A DNA stretch of 64,000 nt from Escherichia phage vB_EcoM_3HA14 (MN342151.1), one strand, 5' to 3'; shown: positions 33,542-63,921, counted from the first letter of the stretch. Notes: generated by a model not told the origin, from the letters alone. Made by a program: numbers and translations.

Positions 33542-33617
33542 TGGAGTATCGGAAGGGACTCGAACCCTCATAAACCTGTTTTGCAGACAGGCACATAACC
33601 ATTTCTGACACCGACAC
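33542..33617 (-). tRNA. tRNA-Cys (GCA)
   Basis: Manual fold: acceptor GTGTCGG/CCGATAC, anticodon arm CCTGT-CTGCAAA-ACAGG, T-arm GAGGG-TTCGAGT-CCCTT, CCA encoded. Confidence 0.75.
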
Positions 33618-33623
33618 ATAATT

Positions 33624-33716
33624 TGGAGGAAGATACCAGACTTGAACTGGTACGCCGATTTCTCGGTTACTGGCAGTTTAGCAAACTGCTCCCTTACCTT
33701 TTAGGGTTAATCTTCC
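33624..33716 (-). tRNA. tRNA-Ser (GCT), long variable arm
   Basis: 93 nt; acceptor GGAAGAT/ATCTTCC perfect; anticodon loop TTGCTAA; long variable arm; T-loop TTCAAGT. Confidence 0.75.
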
Positions 33717-33717
33717 A

Positions 33718-34452
33718 TTATTTGTTCAGAGCTTCTTTCATCTCTGGAGTTGCGATAGTATCAATCACACCAGTTTTACATGAATCATCAAACCAGCTTG
33801 GTAGAACATTCGCAAGGAAACCATTAATATTTGTTTTCAGATATTCTGCAATCAGTGCTGCTTCATCTGCAATCATCTGAGTTACTTCGTTAGCATATGC
33901 AGTAATCTTTGCAATACCCTCATTAATCGCTGTAACGGCCTGTGTAGCGAGTTCAGAGATTGTATCTAGTCCTTGGTCGATTGCATCTTGCAAATCGCTT
34001 AGAACGCCATTTACAGCGTCTATGGAGGTATTAATCAAATCCATCGCTTTATTACCGTACTCGGTAGCTACGCCCATGATACCGCTAAACGGTGTACATC
34101 CAACCTGTTCACCTGCTGCTCCCATAACGTTAGAGTAACCTTTAGCTACTTGCATACGTTGTGAAAACTCATCTACAGACTTTTGTCCATACTCAGTAAG
34201 TGTACTTGTCGTTGAAGTTGTACTTCCAAGGCTTGTTGTGAAGCTTCCTAATAAGGCTGTTGTCAGTCCAGCAGCAACTAAAATCTGTTGTGTAGCTGGG
34301 TCTGTTACAGAACTAATTGAGTTAACTAATGATTGAGAGGCAGCTATAGTACCACCAAGAACTGCTGCACCAGTAATAAGAGGGTTTGAAAAACCATTAC
34401 CAGTTTTAAGGAGATTAAAAATCTCTTTACTTTGTTCTGTCATCTCTTTCAT
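33718..34452 (-). CDS. hypothetical Ala/Thr/Ser-rich protein (244 aa) within tRNA cluster
   Basis: ORF-track start (GTG at 34515) would run through a tRNA-Phe; ATG at 34452 has a GGTG RBS and avoids the tRNA. Confidence 0.5.
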   Translation of the reverse strand: MKEMTEQSKEIFNLLKTGNGFSNPLITGAAVLGGTIAASQSLVNSISSVTDPATQQILVAAGLTTALLGSFTTSLGSTTSTTSTLTEYGQKSVDEFSQRMQVAKGYSNVMGAAGEQVGCTPFSGIMGVATEYGNKAMDLINTSIDAVNGVLSDLQDAIDQGLDTISELATQAVTAINEGIAKITAYANEVTQMIADEAALIAEYLKTNINGFLANVLPSWFDDSCKTGVIDTIATPEMKEALNK

Positions 34453-34468
34453 TATGCACCTATAAAGT

Positions 34469-34545
34469 TGGTAGCCCATCGGGATTTGAACCCTGTTCTC
34501 ATGTTTTTCAGACACGCGCTTTAACCATATAAGCTAATTGAGCTA
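34469..34545 (-). tRNA. tRNA-Phe (GAA), atypical acceptor/D spacing
   Basis: Anticodon arm CGTGT-CTGAAAA-ACATG; D-arm GCTT-ATATGGTTA-AAGC; T-loop TTCAAAT; acceptor pairs only with a 1-2 nt offset and T-stem is weak. Confidence 0.55.
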
Positions 34546-34551
34546 TTAAAT

Positions 34552-34628
34552 TGGGGTGACCTACGGGAATCGAACCCGTATAGACCATGTTCACAGCATG
34601 GGTCATTATCCATTTATGATAAGGCCAC
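34552..34628 (-). tRNA. tRNA-His (GTG)
   Basis: Anticodon arm CCATG-CTGTGAA-CATGG; D-arm TCAT/ATGA; acceptor GTGGCCT/AGGTCAC; CCA encoded. Confidence 0.75.
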
Positions 34629-34659
34629 ATTTAAGGACTCTCGTAAGAATCCTTAGAAG

Positions 34660-34735
34660 TGGCAGCAGTATAAGGATTTGAACCTTAATCTTTCAGCTTC
34701 AGAGGCTGGAGCATTGCCAGTTATGCTATACTGCT
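34660..34735 (-). tRNA. tRNA-Gln (CTG)
   Basis: 76 nt; anticodon loop CTCTGAA; D-arm GCAT/ATGC; acceptor AGCAGTA/TACTGCT perfect. Confidence 0.7.
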
Positions 34736-34741
34736 AATATT

Positions 34742-34820
34742 TGGTACTCCATATCGGATTCGAACCGATACATAACACAGATTTTAAATCTGGCCTCTCT
34801 GCCAATTGGAGTAATGGAGC
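34742..34820 (-). tRNA. tRNA with Leu anticodon (TAA) but short variable arm
   Basis: Anticodon loop TTTAAAA; D-loop AATTGGCAGAG (Leu-like); variable region about 7 nt; discriminator A; T-arm ATCGG-TTCGAAT-CCGAT. Confidence 0.6.
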
Positions 34821-34822
34821 AT

Positions 34823-34898
34823 TGGCGGGGGATGATGGAATTGAACCATCTTCTTCGATTTCAAAGACCGAGGTTTTAACCTTGTAAACTAATCCCCT
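34823..34898 (-). tRNA. tRNA-Gln (TTG)
   Basis: Anticodon arm TCGGT-CTTTGAA-ATCGA; D-arm GTTT/AAAC; position 1:72 mismatched. Confidence 0.65.
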
Positions 34899-35124
34899 AA
34901 CGAACTCTTGAAAGAATATATGCGTTATTGCAAGTATCCTTATTTTCAGGTAGTGATGTTTCGAAGATAACTTGCTTAAGTTCTAATCCAGCAAAGTTAT
35001 AAACAACCTTTCTAACTTCTAACGGGTCACATTGCCAACCAACCGCTATAAAGAAAGTATCTCCAAATCTACCTGTTTCAATCTTGTGGTCATCTTTATG
35101 TTTTTCAACTATGAGTTTATACAT
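34897..35124 (-). CDS. hypothetical protein (75 aa) between tRNA genes
   Basis: ORF fills the gap between two tRNAs. Confidence 0.35.
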   Translation of the reverse strand: MYKLIVEKHKDDHKIETGRFGDTFFIAVGWQCDPLEVRKVVYNFAGLELKQVIFETSLPENKDTCNNAYILSRVR

Positions 35125-35142
35125 AATGTTACCTATTAAATT

Positions 35143-35219
35143 TGGTGCAGAATAGAGGATTCGAACCCCTAACTAACAACTTCGTAGGTTGCTGCTCTGT
35201 CCATTTGAACTAATTCTGC
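35143..35219 (-). tRNA. tRNA-Arg (ACG)
   Basis: Acceptor GCAGAAT/ATTCTGC perfect; anticodon arm GCAAC-CTACGAA-GTTGT. Confidence 0.75.
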
Positions 35220-35381
35220 AATATCCTTTTGAGATTCCTGTCTAGCTCTCTTCTTATCTCTTCTGAGAAAGCGTTTACGATGGTCTGTACGCCATTTGTA
35301 ATAATCTTCTTCACCATCATGCGCTGCACAGCAGCCACAACTTGCAATTTCAACTTTACCATGTCTACCATAAGGCTTCAT
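35169..35381 (-). CDS. hypothetical Cys-rich basic protein (70 aa)
   Basis: ORF whose 3' 51 nt overlap tRNA-Arg; CxC plus basic KRxRR-like segment. May be real or chance. Confidence 0.3.
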   Translation of the reverse strand: MKPYGRHGKVEIASCGCCAAHDGEEDYYKWRTDHRKRFLRRDKKRARQESQKDIAELVQMDRAATYEVVS

Positions 35382-35397
35382 AGGAATCTCCTAAAAT

Positions 35398-35475
35398 TGG
35401 TGTTCCAAGACGGATTCGAACCGTCACTAATACAAGGTTTGAGCTTGCATCCTCTGCCAATTGGGATACTGGAAC
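35398..35475 (-). tRNA. tRNA with Leu anticodon (CAA) but short variable arm
   Basis: Anticodon arm GCAAG-CTCAAAC-CTTGT; D-loop AATTGGCAGAG; variable region about 6 nt; discriminator A. Confidence 0.6.
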
Positions 35476-35476
35476 T

Positions 35477-35551
35477 TGGTACTCGCTGAAGGACTTGAAC
35501 CTTCTTCACCAACTTGTAAGGATGGGGCTTTACCATATAAACTAAGCGAGC
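35477..35551 (-). tRNA. tRNA-Val (TAC)
   Basis: Anticodon loop CTTACAA; T-arm GAAGG-TTCAAGT-CCTTC; separated by 1 nt from the neighbouring tRNA. Confidence 0.7.
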
Positions 35552-35646
35552 TTTGAAGAGGTCTGAAGCTGTGCCGCTAACTCAACTCCGTGGAATTTGT
35601 TACGGTCTTCAGTTGACTCAAGCGGTCTTTCACTTGACCTCAAAAT

Positions 35647-35723
35647 TGGTGCTGCTCACAGGACTCGAACCTGCATCTCCATCCTTACAAGGGATGTGCA
35701 ATAGCCAATTATACGAAAGCAGC
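35647..35723 (-). tRNA. tRNA-Thr (TGT)
   Basis: Anticodon arm CATCC-CTTGTAA-GGATG perfect; T-loop TTCGAGT. Confidence 0.75.
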
Positions 35724-35729
35724 ATTATT

Positions 35730-35804
35730 TGGAGCATCCAGAGGGAATCGAACCCTCAACCTCAGTTTGGAAGACTGTAATTTTCCCATTTAAACTATGG
35801 ATGC
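35730..35804 (-). tRNA. tRNA-Gly (TCC)
   Basis: Acceptor GCATCCA/TGGATGC perfect; anticodon loop CTTCCAA. Confidence 0.75.
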
Positions 35805-35810
35805 ACTAAT

Positions 35811-35886
35811 TGGTGGAGAAGCAGGGAATTGAACCCTGTACTTAAGTTTGCAAAACTTATGTTTTAACCATGTAAACTACATCCCC
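35811..35886 (-). tRNA. tRNA-Ala (TGC)
   Basis: Anticodon arm TAAGT-TTTGCAA-ACTTA perfect; D-arm GTTT/AAAC; G3:U70 wobble (Ala identity element) present. Confidence 0.8.
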
Positions 35887-35892
35887 ATTGTT

Positions 35893-35968
35893 TGGTACAG
35901 GTGGAGGGAATTGAACCCATCGTCTTACTGATTAAGAGTCAGCCGCATAACCATTTTGCTACACCTGC
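35893..35968 (-). tRNA. tRNA-Lys (CTT)
   Basis: Anticodon arm GCTGA-CTCTTAA-TCAGT; T-stem only 3 bp (GGG/CCC). Confidence 0.6.
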
Positions 35969-35975
35969 ATTAATT

Positions 35976-36052
35976 TGGTACACCTAGAGAGATTCGAACT
36001 CACACTGAGCAGATTCTAAGTCTGCTGCCTCTTCCAATTGGGCTATAGGTGC
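35976..36052 (-). tRNA. tRNA with Leu anticodon (TAG) but short variable arm
   Basis: 77 nt; anticodon arm GCAGA-CTTAGAA-TCTGC perfect; D-loop AATTGGAAGAG; 5-nt variable loop; discriminator A. Confidence 0.65.
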
Positions 36053-36305
36053 ATTAAATCTTTGTAGAGAACTGCTAAGACGCCAAAGCAACAATGGTAT
36101 CAAATGCCTTAACAATTCTCTAAAAAGACCTATTGGCCTCTGCATAGTCTTGCTTAATCCGGTGACTAGAACCTTTGGAGAGCTTGATACTATCTCTTCT
36201 CCGTGACACCTACTAGGTGCTTTACCAGTGCCGTGTACGCCAATACACGAAGAGGAAACCTGAAACACTTGCTCGAACAAATAGTCTCAGCTTTAAATCT
36301 TATTA

Positions 36306-36395
36306 GGCGGTAGATAAAGGAGTCGAACCCTCACCGTATCTCTACAATGGCAACTGTTTTCAAGACAGTTTGGCTTCCATTAGCCGCTACCTACC
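36306..36395 (-). tRNA. tRNA-Ser (TGA), long variable arm
   Basis: About 90 nt; anticodon arm ACTGT-CTTGAAA-ACAGT; long variable arm; 3' CC encoded but not the terminal A. Confidence 0.7.
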
Positions 36396-36408
36396 CCTAA
36401 TAAGACTT

Positions 36409-36491
36409 TGGCATGGGACGGAGGATTCGAACCCCTTTGAGTAAGTTTTGGAGGCTTACGCACATGCCTTAGTGTCTTAACATCGTCCCAT
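36409..36491 (-). tRNA. atypical tRNA-like gene, possibly tRNA-Trp (CCA)
   Basis: Perfect 7-bp acceptor ATGGGAC/GTCCCAT and T-arm. Anticodon stem GTAAG/CTTAC encloses a 9-nt loop CCTCCAAAA (CCA anticodon if the closing pair is unpaired); D region about 8 nt longer than canonical. Confidence 0.5.
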
Positions 36492-36656
36492 ACTATATTT
36501 CGAAGCTTACCCTGTTATCTCAACACTGTCAAGCTTCTTCTCAGATTATTTACATGTTCTGGAAAACATGAGATACAGACCACCTCCTTATGAGATTGAC
36601 TCTTTCAAGTCAATGCGGAGACCCATAAAGGTCGTCATAGTAATCTGCTAACTAAT

Positions 36657-36724
36657 TGGCAGTCAAGGTAGGAGTCGAACCTACTTACTATTAAAGGGAG
36701 CTACCCTTCAGCAACTATCCGACT
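36657..36724 (-). tRNA. tRNA-like element (truncated or non-canonical)
   Basis: Canonical T-arm GTAGG-TTCGACT-CCTAC and CCA end, but only about 68 nt to the best acceptor match; no convincing anticodon arm. Confidence 0.35.
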
Positions 36725-36785
36725 TTCGTTTATCTCTTAACGCGTATCCAAGATAACTTACTCGTGTTGTCTTGACCATTAAAAT

Positions 36786-36862
36786 TGGCACACCCTACAG
36801 GATTCGAACCTGTAACTGACGGTTTAGAAGACCGTTGCTCTATCCGTTTGAACTAAGGGTGC
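36786..36862 (-). tRNA. tRNA-Arg (TCT)
   Basis: Anticodon arm ACGGT-CTTCTAA-ACCGT perfect; T-arm ACAGG-TTCGAAT-CCTGT. Confidence 0.75.
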
Positions 36863-37066
36863 ATTATCTTTAAAGGCTCTCTTAGAAAACCCTTAAAGAT
36901 GCCCACTTTATTAATCATACCGTGGGCTAGTACGCCAAATTCTTTAACAGGGAGTTGGAATACCCTGCTGGTGTTTAGCCTATTAAGCTACTGCCAGAAA
37001 AACATTATCGTTTGCATTTATTTTTAAGTTTTTAAAATAGACGCTACGCTAACGAAAACTAAGGTT

Positions 37067-37095
37067 ATCTTAAAGTGGTCACATCTAAATGTCAA
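37067..37095 (-). promoter_or_regulatory. possible internal sigma70-like promoter in tRNA cluster spacer
   Basis: On - strand: TTGACA (37090-37095), 17-nt spacer, TAAGAT (37067-37072). Confidence 0.3.
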
Positions 37096-37109
37096 CAACT
37101 TTATGAAAT

Positions 37110-37187
37110 TGGTTGTAGGTGAGGGTATCGAACCCTCTTCTAACGGTTATCAGCCGTTTGCATTACCATTTATGCTAACCCACAATT
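37110..37187 (-). tRNA. tRNA-Ile (GAT)
   Basis: Anticodon arm AACGG-CTGATAA-CCGTT perfect; D-arm GCAT/ATGC. Confidence 0.75.
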
Positions 37188-37189
37188 GG

Positions 37190-37266
37190 AGGTTCAGGTG
37201 GGAATCGAACCCACATTCATAGGGCTTATGAAACCCTTGCATTACCTTATCTGCGACTGAACCATT
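37190..37266 (-). tRNA. tRNA-Met (CAT), elongator-like
   Basis: Acceptor GGTTCAG/CTGAACC perfect; anticodon arm AGGGT-TTCATAA-GCCCT; 1:72 paired, so not initiator-like. Confidence 0.7.
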
Positions 37267-37344
37267 ATAAGTTGCCCCTTTGTAGAGAACTGATTGAGTG
37301 GGTGTTTCCAGCCGCGCATGTGTTCTTCAGTTAAGGGGCGAATT

Positions 37345-37421
37345 TGGTAGAAGTGGAGGGATTCGAACCCGTCGCCTGTCAGATTAAAAGTCTGCCGCAT
37401 CACCATTCTGCTACACTTCCA
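37345..37421 (-). tRNA. tRNA-Lys (TTT)
   Basis: Anticodon region GCAGA-CTTTTAA-TCTGA; weak T-stem like the CTT isoacceptor. Confidence 0.65.
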
Positions 37422-37606
37422 TTAAATCATCTTTGCAGTAACCTACGCAAACCTTGCTAAAGGGTTTGTAGAGTCATCTCTTATAAGCTAATCTAGAATC
37501 ATGCTCAAGAGACTCTTCGGCACTCATGGGACGACTGGTTAGCTCCATAAGTCACTGCAAAGAGGATTACCAGACCGTATTTATCTTAAGTGCTTCCATT
37601 ACACCA

Positions 37607-37643
37607 ACACGCCGTAACGTGTGAAGGAATCGAACCTTCGCCT
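37607..37643 (-). ncRNA. orphan T-arm-like hairpin with adjacent stem-loop (tRNA-like module without acceptor or anticodon)
   Basis: Sense strand GAAGG-TTCGATT-CCTTC followed by ACACG-TTACGG-CGTGT; no pairing acceptor found within 100 nt. Confidence 0.3.
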
Positions 37644-37844
37644 TTTCTTTACCAGAGAAATAGATTGTTTATTGTTTGCTGTAAACGGTCTTCTGTAAAA
37701 TTGTTGGAACCAGACCAAGTTTTAAATTTTTCAAATTAAATTGGCTTGAAATATTAAAATTGCTTGCTGTATTTGGTCTTCTGCTCCTTTAAAGAATACT
37801 CGTAAGAACTCTTTAAGGGAGGGGCTAAAAAGCCCTCTCAAATT

Positions 37845-37921
37845 TGGCGGTTACGAAGGGATTCGAACCCTCATCATCCTCCGTGACAGGGAGGTATTTT
37901 GACCAGTTAAACTACATAACC
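37845..37921 (-). tRNA. tRNA-Asp (GTC)
   Basis: Anticodon arm CCTCC-CTGTCAC-GGAGG perfect; T-arm GAGGG-TTCGAAT-CCCTT. Confidence 0.75.
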
Positions 37922-37927
37922 TTTATT

Positions 37928-38015
37928 TGGTGCGCCGTGAAGGAGTCGAACCTCCCGAGTCATAATGACAAGTGATTTACAGTCACCACCGCTTCCATCT
38001 ACGGGATAACGACGC
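37928..38015 (-). tRNA. tRNA-Tyr (GTA), long variable arm
   Basis: 88 nt; anticodon arm GGTGA-CTGTAAA-TCACT; variable-arm hairpin TGTCA..TGACT. Confidence 0.7.
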
Positions 38016-38083
38016 ATTTTATTCTATTCAGGCTAAGGACTTGCACCTTACAAATCGGTGAGCAATCGCTTCTCTCCCAAATC

Positions 38084-38161
38084 TTGGCGGTTAGTCAGGG
38101 ATTCGAACCCTGTACCATTCGGTTAACAGCCGACCGCACATGCCTTATGTGCTTCCTAACC
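38084..38161 (-). tRNA. tRNA-Asn (GTT)
   Basis: Anticodon loop CTGTTAA; D-arm GCAC/GTGC; T-arm CAGGG-TTCGAAT-CCCTG. Confidence 0.7.
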
Positions 38162-38245
38162 ATGTTAGTATTACCAGACCGTATCTTTTCATTTTTTGCC
38201 TATAAAAAATTTTAAGTGTTTGCTGTAAACGGCCTTCTGTAAATT

Positions 38246-38322
38246 TGGAGGCGGGTGTAGGAGTCGAACCTACCGATAACATGCTAATGAGACATGTGAG
38301 ACACCCTTTCTCTATACCCGCA
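38246..38322 (-). tRNA. tRNA with CAT anticodon (Met or Ile2), 1:72 mismatch
   Basis: Anticodon arm CATGT-CTCATTA-GCATG; first acceptor pair unpaired (T:C). Confidence 0.6.
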
Positions 38323-38409
38323 ATTCTTAATGACCAGACCAAATCTTTTTTGGATTTCTATGCGCGAAATTGAAAAGTTTGTTTGCTGTAATTGGTCTTC
38401 TGTCAAAAC

Positions 38410-38487
38410 TGGCATTCCCGAAGGGACTTGAACCCTCAAACCACACCTTGAAAGGGTGTTGACTTTACCTAATTTGTCTACGGGAAT
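38410..38487 (-). tRNA. tRNA-Glu (TTC)
   Basis: Acceptor ATTCCCG/CGGGAAT perfect; anticodon arm ACACC-CTTTCAA-GGTGT perfect. Confidence 0.75.
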
Positions 38488-38493
38488 ATAATT

Positions 38494-38573
38494 TGGTCTC
38501 CGTTGAAGGATTTGAACCTTCGACCCCTTGCTCCCAAAGCAAGTGCTGCTAAACCAAACTGAGCTAAACGGAG
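38494..38573 (-). tRNA. tRNA-Pro (TGG)
   Basis: Acceptor CTCCGTT/AACGGAG perfect; anticodon arm CTTGC-TTTGGGA-GCAAG perfect. Confidence 0.75.
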
Positions 38574-49364: not shown

Positions 49365-50870
49365 TAAAATTTACGAAATTTATAATTTTTATAAAATTTG
49401 GGATTCACTCCGTTCATCTTGGGTCACCATGATATGTGATAAAATATCTATACCCCTTCTAAACACCCTTTCTAAGCATCATCTCTATATAGTATTATAT
49501 AGTATCTATATAGCCTCTTAGTCCCTAAATAGTGCTCTCTATATAGCCCTCTATAAAGCCTTCTAAGCCTCCCATTAATCAACCCTATACAATCACCTTC
49601 CTAACCTCTTCATAGCCCCTTAGAAGCCCCTATACTCATCTTAATCTCTAGGTAAACGATAGTACCCTATATAGCAGAATCACTAGGTATTACTAAGCCT
49701 CTATATAGACTGTTATATAGCACTAAACAGGTATTCCCTGTAAATGCTTATCCTACAAGGTCTAACACGGTACTAACAAGGTCTCTTATAAGCCTGTTAA
49801 TTCCTGTTTTATATAAGATAGTGTATAGATAGTTATTCAGAATTATAAAATTTTTATAAAATAGACTAGGTAGGTTACTTTTTAGGTTCTTTGGAGAATC
49901 TGAAAAATATCTACAGAGTGTGTATATCTGCTTGGTAGCCCTTAACAGCCCTGTAACATCCCCTTTGCAAAATCTTAAAATATCATTAACAATCTCTTAA
50001 CAACTCTCCCAAGCTCTTAACATCTCTTCAAAGTTCTTAACAGTCTCTTAACAGAACTAACAAGAGCTTAACCATTCTGTAACATTACTAACAAGAGTCT
50101 AACAAGTTGCTTATAAGTTGCTAAATAGTTAAATCTTAAGAGTTATTTTGTTAAGATAATTAACAAGATGCTAACAAGTTCTAAACCTTTTTAACAGTCT
50201 CTTAACATGGTCACTATCTCTTGGTCTATAGTTCCCTTCCTCTTCTTAGTGATTCTCTATAAAGCCCTCTTAAAAGCTCTCTGTAGCTCTGTATAGCCTC
50301 TTCTAAGCTTCTCCCTAGTAACTACACCCCAACTACCTGTATAGCTCTTTATAGGGCTTTCTAGGGGCTTATACAGGGACTTCAAAGAGTCTAACAAGCT
50401 TTTAACATACCACTAACAAGGATTTAACAAGGGGCTAACAAGTCTCTAATAAGCATAACTATGTAGCATTTGTTAAGATTTTGTTAAGAGAATGTAAAGG
50501 GGGCTAACTTTTACGTTACTTTTAAGGTTCTTTTACGTTACTTTGAAGACTCCATAACATACTTTAAAGCTATTATCAAGCCCCTTTGTAACCATTCACA
50601 AGATACTAACGAGATAATAAAGCTTATACCCTTATAAGATTCTTTTAAGGCTCTAGAAAGCTCTATAAAGGGCTTTTAAGAGTAGGTTAATATGATTGCT
50701 TAAGATGAGATGATAAGCCCGTATAGAGCGTTATAGAGCGTTTTAGGGATTGCCCTTCCCTTTCGGGTTATGGGCTTATATTTAAGGGAATTTATAGTTG
50801 ATTTGATAAGAGGATATAGAGTAAGCTATAGAGTTATTGTTCTAAATGTCTGGTAAGATTCTAGGAAGAC
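49365..50870. other. about 1.5 kb ORF-free, repeat-dense non-coding region
   Basis: No ORF of 60 aa or more on either strand. Dense in short reiterated words: CTATATAG palindromes, TAACAAG, CTCTTAACA (about 7 copies in 49980-50060), CTATAAAGCCCTCT; AATTATAAAATTTTTATAAAAT near-palindrome at about 49376 and 49840. Flanked by convergent terminators. Confidence 0.6.
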
Positions 50871-54458: not shown

Positions 54459-54707
54459 TTATTTAGTTTTCTTTGTAAAGATTAGTTTAACGGCAACAGT
54501 TGGTAACTCTTCAATACTTGTGAACAAAGTCACTTTTTGAGTCTTGACATTATAGCCATACTTTGAACCATAAGCCGTAAAACGGTTTACAATGTAACTG
54601 TAAGTTTTTGCAGTGTTATCTGGCATATGATATAAAAACGGCTTGCCAAGGTTATCAAGTTGTGTTAAGAGTCGGCAAGTGTCAGGGATATTCAACATAT
54701 TAAACAT
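54459..54707 (-). CDS. hypothetical small protein (82 aa)
   Basis: ORF after short-type cassette. Confidence 0.5.
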   Translation of the reverse strand: MFNMLNIPDTCRLLTQLDNLGKPFLYHMPDNTAKTYSYIVNRFTAYGSKYGYNVKTQKVTLFTSIEELPTVAVKLIFTKKTK

Positions 54708-57296: not shown

Positions 57297-57677
57297 TTAG
57301 TTAATTTTGAAAACTGTAACGTAGCCGTCACTACCAATAGTTTGAGATACTCCAGCTTTCTCTACATCATACCCCATTTTATCAAGATGGTACATTGCAT
57401 CTTCATACCCATATTTACCGCCTTGATAGCGTCTTTTTTCACAGCGTATCACAGTTTTACCACGTCCTGCAATAGCATTTATTATAGCTTTTTCACCGGA
57501 TAGTGTACCGTCAAGCATAGTAGCTTTGTAGTGGTTAATACGGTTACCATTAACATCATACTTAAAATTGTAAGCGTGAACAACAATTATTTTTCCTTTG
57601 AAGTTTTCTTTCATAGTTTCCTCTAAGATACTACGAAAGTTTTCTTTGTTGATAAATTTAGGCGCACGATATTTCAT
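57297..57677 (-). CDS. hypothetical protein (126 aa)
   Basis: ORF after long-type cassette. Confidence 0.5.
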   Translation of the reverse strand: MKYRAPKFINKENFRSILEETMKENFKGKIIVVHAYNFKYDVNGNRINHYKATMLDGTLSGEKAIINAIAGRGKTVIRCEKRRYQGGKYGYEDAMYHLDKMGYDVEKAGVSQTIGSDGYVTVFKIN

Positions 57678-57761
57678 TTTAGATTCTCCAGTTTAGGATT
57701 GTTGGTAAAGCTCTTTATCTGGGGCTTAAGATACCAGCTTTTAAACCCCATGTAAAGTACT

Positions 57762-58142: not shown

Positions 58143-58393
58143 TTTTAGATTCTCCAGTTTAGGATTGTTGGGATGTTTCCCGTTGATGCAAATACTATAA
58201 GACTGGATTTATGAAGTCAACAAAAATTTTTAAAATATTTTTGATGTTTCGTGAATAGAACGCACGTATGCGGGTACACTAAAACAGAAACCTAGTCAAG
58301 AATTATTTTTGAGTTCTCTACAAATTTCTCTCTTGACTTTTGGGAGGAAGGGGAGTAAGAGGGGATGGTGGGGCTGGTTTCCTACAGCTACCT

Positions 58394-58600
58394 ACCTGCA
58401 CAATTTGAAAATGAATTTTCCCTTTGGAGTCCAACTGCATCTGCACAGATTGAAAATGAAAAAGCTCTTTGGAGTCTAAACCTGCACAAATTTGAAATGA
58501 ATTTTCCCTTTGGAGTTCAGCTAAAGAAATCTGTCCAGAGTTCTATGCAACTATACCTGCACAAATTTAAAATGAAAAAGCCCTCCTTACCTGAGATTTT
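58394..58600. repeat. four direct repeats of about 40-45 bp in intergenic region
   Basis: CCTGCACA(A/G)ATTTGAAAATGAA-(TTTTCCC or AAAAGCTC)-TTTGGAGT at about 58394, 58440, 58481, 58555; two alternating subtypes. ORF 58365..58643 across them is probably not coding. Confidence 0.65.
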
Positions 58601-58623
58601 TAAACTCAAACTTTGGAGGGCTT
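58573..58623 (-). terminator. possible terminator after macro-domain gene (large loop)
   Basis: On - strand: AAGCCCTCC ... GGAGGGCTT 9-bp stem with about 28-nt loop, followed by TTTTTCATTTT. Confidence 0.3.
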
Positions 58624-58647
58624 GTCTATGTCTAGCTAGGTGACTTA

Positions 58648-59499
58648 TTAGTTACGTGCTTCAACATAGCTTACGTTTTCATGTGTGATATAATCTTCTG
58701 CAAACTCTTCTGTAGTCGCATTGATATATACACTTGCATCATCACTAAACGTTACCGCTCTGTGGTGGTGGCCTTGTAACGGGTGGGTAACTTGAGCGTT
58801 ACTTCGATTGTACTTCTCAACCGGAGGGTAACTGGTGTGTACCTTGCCATTACGCTTCACCTTGAGGGTAACTTTATCCTTGCCTACCACAGCAACACCA
58901 TCAAAGTATTGAGGCTCACTGAAGTTCTCCCAACCAGTAACAGGATTAGTCAACTGACTGTACATCTTATCTTCATAGACATACATATAAACGTCAACAT
59001 CCTTCATAGTCTGGTTGATAATGGACAGTACAGCCATGCTATCAAGACCACCAATCCCTGCACCAACCATTGGAAGCCCAACTTTCTTAAGTTGGTTAAC
59101 TTTACAGTAGTTATTAAGACGCTGTAAAGCTGCTTCTAAGGCGTTGTATCGTGCATCTTTGCCAGTGATAACCTGAGTGTAAAGGTTAGCAATTCGACCC
59201 TGCTTAAAACGTGCTACAGAGATGTTACCAAGCATTAGATGCTTAGGGTTATGATTTTCACCACCTACTGTAGCATAAACTTCAGCGTCAGTTTCATAAG
59301 CTTTTGGGTAGCGTTTAGCAATTGTTGCTGCGATACCTGCACCCATCAAGTTCATGCAGTTACAGCCGTGACCAATGATATCAAACTTCTTACCATCAAA
59401 GTCTTTAAAGATATCACCTTTAATAATTTTTACGATACCCATATTAGTAATGCTCCCAACGTTCGTTATCTTCAGATGGTTTAACTCGGTTACCTTCAT
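58648..59499 (-). CDS. macro-domain protein (TARG1/DarG-like ADP-ribose-binding or hydrolase fold) with C-terminal extension
   Basis: GDIF...DIIGHGCNCMNLMGAGIAATIAKRYP and VGLPMVGAGIGGLD match the Gly-rich ADP-ribose-binding loops of macro domains; about 110 aa extra C-terminal region with a His-rich patch. Confidence 0.6.
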   Translation of the reverse strand: MKVTELNHLKITNVGSITNMGIVKIIKGDIFKDFDGKKFDIIGHGCNCMNLMGAGIAATIAKRYPKAYETDAEVYATVGGENHNPKHLMLGNISVARFKQGRIANLYTQVITGKDARYNALEAALQRLNNYCKVNQLKKVGLPMVGAGIGGLDSMAVLSIINQTMKDVDVYMYVYEDKMYSQLTNPVTGWENFSEPQYFDGVAVVGKDKVTLKVKRNGKVHTSYPPVEKYNRSNAQVTHPLQGHHHRAVTFSDDASVYINATTEEFAEDYITHENVSYVEARN

Positions 59500-62722: not shown

Positions 62723-62754
62723 GCAGACAATTATACACTAACCTGCACATTTTT

Positions 62755-62785
62755 CAAATAAAAAAGGCTGCCGAAGCAGCCCCTT
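62755..62785 (-). terminator. rho-independent terminator
   Basis: On - strand: GGGGCTGC-TTCG-GCAGCC followed by TTTTTTATTT. Confidence 0.55.
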
Positions 62786-62799
62786 TAGGAATTTACTTA

Positions 62800-63921
62800 T
62801 TAAACTTCACGTTTACGCTGAGAAATCAGTTCACCAGCAGTACCTACAACTACGTGGAGTGCTTCTGAACCATCCCACTCTTTGATGACTTCGCGACGAC
62901 TATTTACAATCGCTGCAACTTCATAGCGGGAAGCTCGCATTTTCATGTCGTTGTAGTCAGTTGGTACTGAAACAACATCACGAGGATGAACACGAACTTT
63001 CAGGATAGTGTCACCAGAGAAGCTAGTTACATAATCCCAAGCACCAACGTGCAGACCCTGAGAGCAGGTTACATGACGATTATTATCAACCATCCAACGT
63101 GGCATCTCTACAATGTTACCCAAATCATTTGGAACTTTGCAGGTACGAGAGTCAAACAGTTTACCACTACGAGTTGTGACTTTCTTCCAGCCGATGATAT
63201 AACCTTCTTCATCAATTTCAACATCAAGGTGTGATACGAAGCCCCAAAGTTGTTCTACAGAGTCTTTTGATGGGTTTTCCATCAGTTTTTCGAAGAATGC
63301 AATCAGTCGAACAAAACCATTATCACCTTTCTTCATCATATCCAGAATACGGTCTACCAGAGTTGAGCGCATCTGAACAGCACCGTAATACAGGTTGTCA
63401 CCTTTGATGGTTACAGCACCTTGAGTGAAGTTCTCAATAGACTTGCGAATGTTCATCAGTTCAAAAGCTTTCTTGTACTCACCTGAAACAACAGCCATTA
63501 CAATATCAGTGTAGTTAGGATGAGTTGACTCAACAATCTCAGACTCTGCACCGAAAGTCATGATAACAGAATCACCAGTAATCATGTATTCAATCTGGCT
63601 GTTATTCTGCATTGCTTCATGCAGAGCATTCACAGGTTCTGCTTTGACTGCTTCTTTAACAGCTTTTGCAACAGGTTTCTGCTTAGATACTTTCTTGGTT
63701 GCTTTAGCTTTCTTAGCACTCTTTGCAATATCTTTCAGAGTCTTTGCAGGTTTTGCTTTGGTTTTCCCTGACAGCAGCGTTGCTTCATGACGCTCTACAG
63801 CACGACCTACCGAACGGGTTGAAGTGTTATACTTCAGAGCAATTGCAGTTTTGGTAAGTTTACCTTCTTTAACCAGTGCATAGATTTCTGCGTCGATTTG
63901 TGCTTTAGTCTTAGTAGTCAT
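62800..63921 (-). CDS. DNA-binding-like protein: N-terminal HTH-like segment, Lys/Ala-rich linker, about 270-aa C-terminal domain (373 aa)
   Basis: TKTAIALKYNTSTRSVGRAVER looks HTH-like; KAKPAKTLKDIAKSAKKAKATKKVSKQKPVAKAVKEAVKAEP is histone-H1-like low complexity; C-domain unassigned. Confidence 0.5.
   Translation of the reverse strand: MTTKTKAQIDAEIYALVKEGKLTKTAIALKYNTSTRSVGRAVERHEATLLSGKTKAKPAKTLKDIAKSAKKAKATKKVSKQKPVAKAVKEAVKAEPVNALHEAMQNNSQIEYMITGDSVIMTFGAESEIVESTHPNYTDIVMAVVSGEYKKAFELMNIRKSIENFTQGAVTIKGDNLYYGAVQMRSTLVDRILDMMKKGDNGFVRLIAFFEKLMENPSKDSVEQLWGFVSHLDVEIDEEGYIIGWKKVTTRSGKLFDSRTCKVPNDLGNIVEMPRWMVDNNRHVTCSQGLHVGAWDYVTSFSGDTILKVRVHPRDVVSVPTDYNDMKMRASRYEVAAIVNSRREVIKEWDGSEALHVVVGTAGELISQRKREV

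Follow-up and report, generated by a model that had tools for sequence, protein, structure and literature searches.

Our results show that an intergenic gap of Escherichia phage vB_EcoM_3HA14 (MN342151.1) carries an array of direct repeats that is nearly unchanged across at least four phage genera. We tentatively read the array as a unique cis-acting element, made of three to four candidate sites in the same orientation for a sequence-specific factor that would act on the DNA; we give this reading a probability of roughly 45%. We infer that a protein would bind the repeats, would act on DNA rather than on RNA, and would have the consequences outlined below.

The window, which is the whole stretch of 64,000 nucleotides that we analysed, belongs to Mooglevirus (Ounavirinae) and is 97–98% identical to the Shigella phages ESh20, Sf18 and Sf13. 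All genes around the array are on the minus strand. Hence, the array is best read as its reverse complement.

The repeat array and its intergenic gap

The features to which we refer are the following, with matrix scores from the weight matrix described below.

62800–63921, minus strand: rIIB
62740–62768, minus strand: fifth copy of the motif, weaker than the others, GCCTTTTTTATTTGAAAAATGTGCAGGTT (24.1 bits; best score among 20 shuffles, 13.1)
58648–59499, minus strand: macro-domain gene, last gene of the upstream operon
58578–58623, minus strand: Rho-independent terminator hairpin of the lysozyme-like to macro-domain operon, “t13” of Felix O1 (MFE −20.5 kcal/mol, z −3.66)
58554–58582, minus strand: R4 core, GGCTTTTTCATTTTAAATTTGTGCAGGTA (42.9 bits; in all lineages; fused to the terminator tail)
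58479–58507, minus strand: R3 core, GGAAAATTCATTTCAAATTTGTGCAGGTT (36.5 bits)
58438–58466, minus strand: R2 core, AGCTTTTTCATTTTCAATCTGTGCAGATG (39.8 bits)
58393–58421, minus strand: R1 core, GGAAAATTCATTTTCAAATTGTGCAGGTA (42.4 bits; 76% of columns invariant)
58338–58392, minus strand: C-rich tract, G-rich on the plus strand (variable; 19% of columns invariant)
58288–58337, no strand assigned: inverted-repeat block (70% of columns invariant across genera)
58185–58245, minus strand: AT-rich UP-like stretch and predicted sigma-70 promoter of the small-gene island (promoter scans)
33542–38573, minus strand: cluster of 26 tRNA genes covering most amino acids

Between rIIB and the gap lie a lysozyme-like gene, a polynucleotide kinase gene, spanin genes, small genes and, last, the macro-domain gene. 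Past the gap follows a long island of small genes, all of which are preceded by a promoter and a ribosome-binding cassette of their own. Along the gene strand the order is macro-domain gene, t13 terminator, R4 to R1, C-rich tract, inverted-repeat block, a variable stretch, AT-rich stretch with promoter, leader/RBS block and small-gene island.

A repeat search of the window returned four direct copies of a 43-nt unit (58394–58436, 58439–58481, 58480–58522 and 58555–58597), of which the second, third and fourth are 74%, 88% and 63% identical to the first. The copies start 45, 41 and 75 bp apart, and TRF groups the first three into an array of period 41/45. On the transcribed minus strand the core reads CTTTTTCATTTTCAAATTGTGCAGGTA. 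A 21-nt version, TCATTTTCAAATTGTGCAGGT (minus strand), has four matches in the 64-kb window at up to three mismatches where 0.00 are expected, and the pattern TCATTT-N5-8-GTGCAG also occurs four times, against an expectation of 0.05. The array of four direct repeats described in the first-pass annotation is therefore real, and so are its two alternating subtypes, GAAAATGAATTTTCCCTTTGGAGT in R1 and R3 and GAAAATGAAAAAGC in R2 and R4. The intergenic region is longer than the 450 bp given there: the cores span 58393–58597 within a gap of 505 bp (58143–58647). The fourth copy holds up over one half, which is in register with the others, while the distal half belongs to the macro-operon terminator, as its 3′ arm and T-run. 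The TTTGGAG assigned to that copy lies about 27 nt further on (~58611–58618), where it forms the other arm of the hairpin.

The motif is asymmetric and its internal dyad is weak. The base that follows GTGCAG in R2 is A instead of G in nearly all lineages sampled. The subfamily-wide core, given for the gene strand, is T(C/T)ATTTT-N2-A-N3-GTGCA, in a unit of about 37 nt.

The terminator directly precedes the array, and its T-run (58568–58577) is the start of R4. It corresponds to a predicted terminator listed in the Felix O1 genome paper (PMC3185647), and its counterparts in ASO1A, XTG1 and wV8 carry a terminator annotation. The stem is changed on both arms in BPS17L1 and phiWec172 with pairing retained, and its 5′ arm differs in ESh21. 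The hairpin part thus has a stable GC-rich stem, a T-run and pairing that is kept despite sequence change, as expected of a terminator. Folded as plus strand, the hairpin reaches −19.8 kcal/mol (z −5.05) and has no U-tract after it. When the segment 58579–58625 is compared with R1–R3, the 5′ arm of the hairpin in the Mooglevirus type, CCCTCCAAAG, resembles the sequence that heads R1–R3, ACTCCAAAG; the Felixounavirus terminator has a different 5′ arm, GCCTTTCTTATCTGG. Because of this resemblance R2 reads like the terminator-R4 module minus the hairpin interior, which suggests that repeat unit and terminator have recombined.

Downstream of R1, the position of the C-rich tract holds a second, unrelated allele (GGTGGGTGCAGGTGGGGATGTCGCC...) in other Felixounaviruses, with both flanks nearly invariant. 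The plus strand of 58338–58392 (GGGAGGAAGGGGAGTAAGAGGGGATGGTGGGG) has four G-runs with loops of 5–7 nt, a G-quadruplex-type motif, and the gene strand, which is C-rich and G-poor, resembles a Rho-loading site. The adjoining inverted repeat has the arms AGTCAAGA (58294–58301) and TCTTGACT (58331–58338), about 30 bp apart, which yield two divergent, back-to-back TTGACT hexamers. The one on the plus strand (58333–58338), paired with TAAGAG (58356–58361), would face into the array. By its layout, the block at 58288–58337 might hold two divergent promoters or serve as a dimeric operator; in Kolesnikvirus, CGTCAAG ... TTGACTT is arranged analogously.

The promoter of the small-gene island is predicted on the minus strand as TTGACT (58220–58215), a spacer of 17 and TAGTAT (58197–58192). 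It is kept in Felixounavirus, where ASO1A has it annotated as a promoter, and its Kolesnikvirus counterpart is TTGACT-17-TATATT. An invariant AT-rich stretch, AAAAATATTTTTAAAA, at 58221–58245 doubles as its UP element.

The gap ends in a leader/RBS block. An exact 29-nt repeat, TTTTAGATTCTCCAGTTTAGGATTGTTGG, occurs here at 58143–58171 and again at 57677–57705, with similar blocks near 54700, 55560, 56860 and 57210. On the gene strand it reads CCAACAATCCTAAACTGGAGAATCTAAAA followed by ATG, and this cassette is reused before many of the small genes. Part of it is annotated as repeat_region in Mordin, and it yields recurrent spurious plus-strand ORFs containing “FRFSSLGLLGL”. The wV8 counterpart is annotated as DR_6; we considered DR_6 as a previous record of the array, and it is the leader/RBS block instead.

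Conservation across genera

Searching with the gap in distant mode gave 255 phage records, 235 of them at a query coverage of at least 80%. In near mode, several genera match the gap while the adjoining macro-domain gene does not. Our alignment comprised 20 distinct orthologous regions, which came from Mooglevirus, Suspvirus and Felixounavirus. Each of them has all four repeats, at spacings of 73–77, 39–41 and 45 bp. Between the Mooglevirus-type group and the others, repeat cores are 79–90% identical, a range in which the value for R4 is inflated because the pattern used to retrieve IMG/VR loci overlaps the start of R4 (loci derived by BLAST agree in outcome). Most spacers are 28–62% identical and the C-rich tract 53%. 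Even the R3 core stands at 79%, against 62% for the spacer that precedes it. Each repeat also keeps its position-specific flavour across lineages: orthologous units are more alike than paralogous ones, and hence each site appears to be individually constrained.

The array extends to a different genus on a different host. In the Erwinia phage Harbringer (Kolesnikvirus), the macro protein is 41% identical over half its length. Downstream of its gene we find a terminator, four units (GGATAGCTTTTTCATTTTCAATTTGTGCATAG and three variants, spaced 37/37/39 bp), a C-rich tract and a UP-like stretch with promoter, and two further Kolesnikvirus contigs agree with this layout. The Kolesnikvirus unit K3 (AGGTCTGGCAAGAAAAATCATTTT...) is nearly identical to the Felixounavirus form of R1, AGGTCGGGCAAGAAAAATCATTTT, so that single units appear to be orthologous across genera. 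The array was found in every relative examined, the check by which the first-pass annotation had proposed to judge it. Judged by these comparisons, the repeats are under strong purifying selection as sequence.

One could also argue that the repeats are inert relics, that is, decayed duplications of the terminator tail (CTCCAAAG...GCTTTTTCATTTT). R2 does read like R4 with the hairpin interior deleted, and the CTTTTTCATTT part is the usual tail of terminators in this phage. This explanation is very unlikely, for the following reasons. First, the GTGCA half is absent from the other terminators. Second, neutral decay is at odds with cores that are 79–90% identical when spacers are at 28–62% and the neighbouring protein is at 41–61%. 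Third, three to four copies are kept in four genera. The conservation data therefore disfavour a relic.

The number of units is less constant than their sequence. Three units are found in BPS17L1, in phiWec172 and in several metagenomic contigs, with R3 and R2 fused such that exactly one unit is lost. One contig (L019) has no R1, and in wV8 the GTGCAG of R2 carries a 2-nt deletion. These natural variants suggest that the units are modular and partly redundant. We count the variable copy number against a binding array, and likewise the asymmetry of the motif with its weak dyad. The spacing also bears on the kind of complex that could form. Spacings are fixed in Mooglevirus, Suspvirus and Felixounavirus (73–77/39–41/45) but are 37/37/39 in Kolesnikvirus; this difference in helical phasing counts against a tightly cooperative DNA complex. 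Unconserved phasing is unusual for cooperative DNA-binding arrays.

Uniqueness of the motif and a fifth site

From all copies we derived a weight matrix of 29 nt, with which we scanned the window and the complete genome of Sf13. The scan returned the four sites of the array (36–43 bits) and a single other one, which makes five sites in 88 kb. Four sites at one locus and one elsewhere is the pattern of a unique cis site and not of a promoter class.

The fifth copy lies directly after the rIIB terminator (62783–62766), where it covers the −35 hexamer and the spacer of a near-consensus promoter, TTGAAA (62757–62752), 16 nt, TATAAT (62735–62730). This promoter starts the operon upstream of the array, from the lysozyme-like gene to the macro-domain gene. 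In three lineages TGTGCAG is fixed within the promoter spacer, and the neighbouring spacer bases vary. By its position, the fifth site looks operator-like. No such site was seen in the 4–6 kb examined upstream of the Kolesnikvirus arrays, which speaks against the binding-site reading.

The first-pass annotation had also proposed that the repeats are stacked promoter elements. Each unit would then fire into the small-gene island, depending on sigma-70 or on a phage factor, much as T7 A1–A3 do. The units point along transcription and are A/T-rich upstream in the manner of UP elements, R4 of the window matches TTTTCA-17-TATAGT, and the fifth copy overlaps a near-consensus promoter. Yet R1–R3 have no acceptable −10 at any spacing in any lineage. 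The −10 of R4 decays to TATCTG, TAAAAG or TGAAAT in other lineages and is not kept in arrays of the BPS17L1 type or of Kolesnikvirus. Kolesnikvirus units have no promoter match on the sense strand, and in-array matches on the opposite strand are confined to that genus. Moreover, a phage-specific promoter class should recur before other operons, but apart from the fifth copy the motif is nowhere else in 88 kb. With a sigma-70-like pair in R4 alone, and there in some lineages, the proposal is not supported; as a description of the array we consider it distinctly unlikely.

Beyond these genomes, searches of IMG/VR, of 185,579 prokaryotic species and of JGI/ENA metagenomes found the array only in Ounavirinae-type contigs, where its context is constant; viral and metagenome matches were filtered with the matrix. 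A two-unit pattern searched in one genome each for the 185,579 species gave 12 unrelated tandem repeats and no host analogue. An Ignavibacteria MAG (CAVVVP010000010.1, L039 1305–1440) has, between genes of a prophage-like region, four or five tandem units of 32 nt, GGCTCATTTTCCATTTGTGCAAGGGGTCAATC. Of 18 core positions, 17 are the same as in the phage. As both phylum and context are unrelated, this likeness is probably a coincidence.

Coding capacity and RNA

The array does not encode a protein. The plus-strand ORF across it (58365–58643), annotated as Sf13 gp58 and as Mordin_126, shifts its frame, start and stop between lineages, and so is the artefact that the first-pass annotation suspected. 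Sense-strand ORFs, including “gene 13” of wV8, vary in frame, start and end in the same manner. They start at the GTG of GTGCAG, and lineages differ by indels of 2 and 4 nt. No reading frame is conserved on either strand.

Nor is the array structured as RNA in nested-pair folding. Folding 331 nt on both strands gave z values of about 0, and single units fold worse than their shuffles (z +0.5 to +1.4). RNAalifold on 10 lineages, like the other folds a nested-pair method, gave −10.9 kcal/mol with 0 compensatory pairs. Searching Rfam, both at the gathering threshold and at E ≤ 10, gave tRNAs and chance hits only.

The main alternative to a binding array is nevertheless that the array acts as RNA, either as an antisense noncoding RNA on the plus strand (~255–310 nt, from a divergent TTGAC(T/G) promoter to t13) or within read-through sense transcripts. 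Under both forms, three to four copies of an unstructured, U/A-rich motif would bind or decoy a protein, for example a host endoribonuclease toxin. There is a phage precedent for such a decoy in pseudo-ToxI (PMC3475682). The Kolesnikvirus units of ~37 nt are almost strictly tandem (37/37/39) and within the size range of type III antitoxin repeats, and copy number shifts by recombination at the level of the unit. A TTGAC(T/G) hexamer that faces the array is conserved 100–170 bp away; the antisense promoter is good in Kolesnikvirus (TTGACG-18-TATACT), its −10 is moderate or plausible in some Felixounaviruses (TGG-TAGTCT), and t13 folds with equal stability when read as plus strand. The layout of a type III antitoxin is absent from the sense strand, and on the antisense strand it is represented by a promoter of variable quality and the t13 hairpin.

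Several observations speak against an RNA. The sense strand is shielded by a strong terminator. On the antisense strand of the window, the −10 is poor (TAAGAG) and the hairpin has no U-tract. Single units are less stable than their shuffles and lack covariation, while type III antitoxins form pseudoknots (PMC5086642). Spacing in the window is irregular (45/41/75), and the paralogous units have diverged without concerted evolution. Finally, there is no Rfam family at E ≤ 10 beyond chance hits and no host array with the motif among the 185,579 species genomes. Taken together, we think that an RNA function is rather improbable.

Replication origin and genome end

An origin of replication is a sub-case of the binding array: the repeats would be iterons, the stretch at 58221–58245 the unwinding element, and the flanking promoters would supply transcriptional activation, as they do at lambda ori. 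An origin would be in keeping with a unique locus that has four repeats in one orientation beside an invariant AT-rich stretch and strong promoters, and with the conservation of the whole module across the subfamily. On the other hand, there is no recognisable initiator, the annotated replication genes being a primase-helicase (pfam03796) and a family-A DNA polymerase (pfam00476). GC skew, which tracks gene orientation in this phage, shows nothing at 58.4 kb. DnaA-box similarity is not above background, and units are lost in natural variants. A T7-like replisome can start from RNA-polymerase transcripts without iterons. We therefore regard an origin as unlikely.

The DnaA reading deserves a closer look, as the GTGCA half, read in reverse complement, gives the TGCAC core of the DnaA box. 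Kolesnikvirus units read CTATGCACA, one mismatch from a DnaA box, and such boxes occur about three times per kb. Searching for a cluster of TT(A/T)TNCACA with at most one mismatch, we found that the window units have two to three mismatches and do not rise above background. Because one-mismatch boxes are common in this AT-rich DNA and the window units are further off still, we dropped DnaA.

Comparison by eye with known consensus sites gave no good fit, for sigma-54, sigma-E, sigma-32, CRP, IHF, Fis, Fur and NtrC; for oriC 13-mers, the UP-element consensus, lambda boxA and the T4 MotA box; and for Tus-Ter, MuA and phi29 p4.

The array is not a genome end, a terminal repeat or a pac site either. 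PhageTerm-based reports give Felixounavirus terminal repeats of 581–613 bp, and the one annotated in Pr103Blw, a short direct repeat of 581 bp, corresponds to 49934–50504 of the window at 78% identity, 8 kb from the array. That segment lies in a gene-free gap of ~1.6 kb packed with short repeats of the CTTGTTA(A/G) and CTGTTAAGA types. The position of this homologue also means that the window spans the concatemer junction, that is, the physical genome end. The array is 8.5–8.7 kb from the physical right end, an estimated ~9.5–10% of a genome of ~88–90 kb.

This distance brings to mind a DNA-entry checkpoint, by analogy with the injection stop signal of T5. First into the cell would be the right genome end, which carries ~8.5 kb of small early genes with individual promoters; at the array, a bound host or membrane factor would stop the transfer, and the remainder would follow once the early proteins were made. 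We found no report of two-step injection in Felix O1-like phages in the literature searched, and such an injection pause seems highly improbable to us. If true, Felix O1-like myoviruses would be a second, unrelated group with two-step genome delivery.

How an array of candidate protein sites could work

Among the explanations proposed in the first-pass annotation, binding sites for a regulator or replication protein survive testing best, largely by elimination and also by conservation, even though no binding protein was found among the neighbours. The ten neighbouring small proteins have no Pfam domain and match PHROGs of “unknown function” only. The array of candidate sites is supported by oriented copies beyond chance, cores that outlast their spacers and the strong terminator ahead of them on the sense strand.

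The factor that would read the sites could be encoded by the phage or by the host. The array lies at the junction of two early transcription units, right behind the macro-operon terminator and 95–175 bp upstream of the presumed small-gene-island promoters. Once occupied, the sites may form a nucleoprotein complex that controls events at this junction. At the single site (62740–62768), occupancy would repress the operon promoter; at the array, it would insulate or modulate the early promoters. Were the factor a replication initiator, the complex would serve to unwind the neighbouring AT-rich stretch as an origin instead.

Significance

The Felix O1 genome paper of 2010 (PMC3185647) lists the terminator and several other repeats, the array is absent from it, and by its own account how transcription is timed in this phage is not understood. 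The PhageMaP library of Bas63 targeted genes only. We found no paper that describes the array in the literature searched, of which our coverage was incomplete. Provisionally, the array appears to be an undescribed cis-element of a familiar general kind.

Felix-O1-like phages are classic typing phages of Salmonella, and they are often found in collections for therapy and biocontrol. A non-coding element of ~200 bp that has outlasted the divergence of neighbouring genes would offer a handle on the timing of early transcription and on the start of replication. The array could serve as bait for its candidate factor, and it can be cleanly deleted. There are also practical consequences. The “hypothetical proteins” called across the array in many deposited genomes are a recurrent annotation error, and for genome engineering the gap that holds the array is not a neutral insertion site.

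Comparison with known systems

T7 A1, A2 and A3 are tandem early promoters that are read by host RNA polymerase. Our array resembles them as several similar tandem elements that head an early gene block. It differs in that its units have no conserved −10, and the real early promoter is 175 bp further downstream.

The repeats of ToxI and of the PhiTE pseudo-ToxI (PMC3475682, PMC5086642) are similar to ours in that they are intergenic phage units of ~36–45 nt in tandem, whose copy number changes by recombination at the level of the unit. Unlike them, our units are diverged and irregularly spaced, show no covariation and have no structure of their own in nested-pair folding. Also unlike ToxI, the array has no sense promoter upstream, and the terminator is in front of it rather than behind. 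It has neither similarity to a known antitoxin (in Rfam or in the 185,579 species genomes) nor a known cognate toxin.

The iss region of T5 is non-coding and bounds the 7.9% of the DNA that is transferred in the first step; over ~1.2–1.7 kb it contains nested inverted repeats as well as palindromes and DnaA boxes in pairs (Davison, bioRxiv 10.1101/866236). Both regions are non-coding, rich in repeats, better conserved than the adjoining genes and bound a terminal block of small early genes (~8–10% of the genome). Our array, in contrast, consists of simple direct repeats over ~200 bp and has no significant DnaA boxes, and the two sequences share nothing.

The closest likeness to candidate protein sites is found in iteron and operator arrays. 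Examples are the four iterons of lambda ori, bound by the O protein, and the iterons of plasmid Rep proteins; the p4 sites of phi29 lie between early and late promoters. Compared to these arrays, spacing is larger here (37–77 bp), its phase is not conserved and single units can be lost. Compared to iterons, the array is in an intergenic gap behind a terminator and not inside the initiator gene. What it shares with both are three to four oriented copies of an asymmetric motif of 20–30 bp at one locus, beside an AT-rich stretch and promoters, with a conserved sequence, drifting spacers and one extra site over a promoter.
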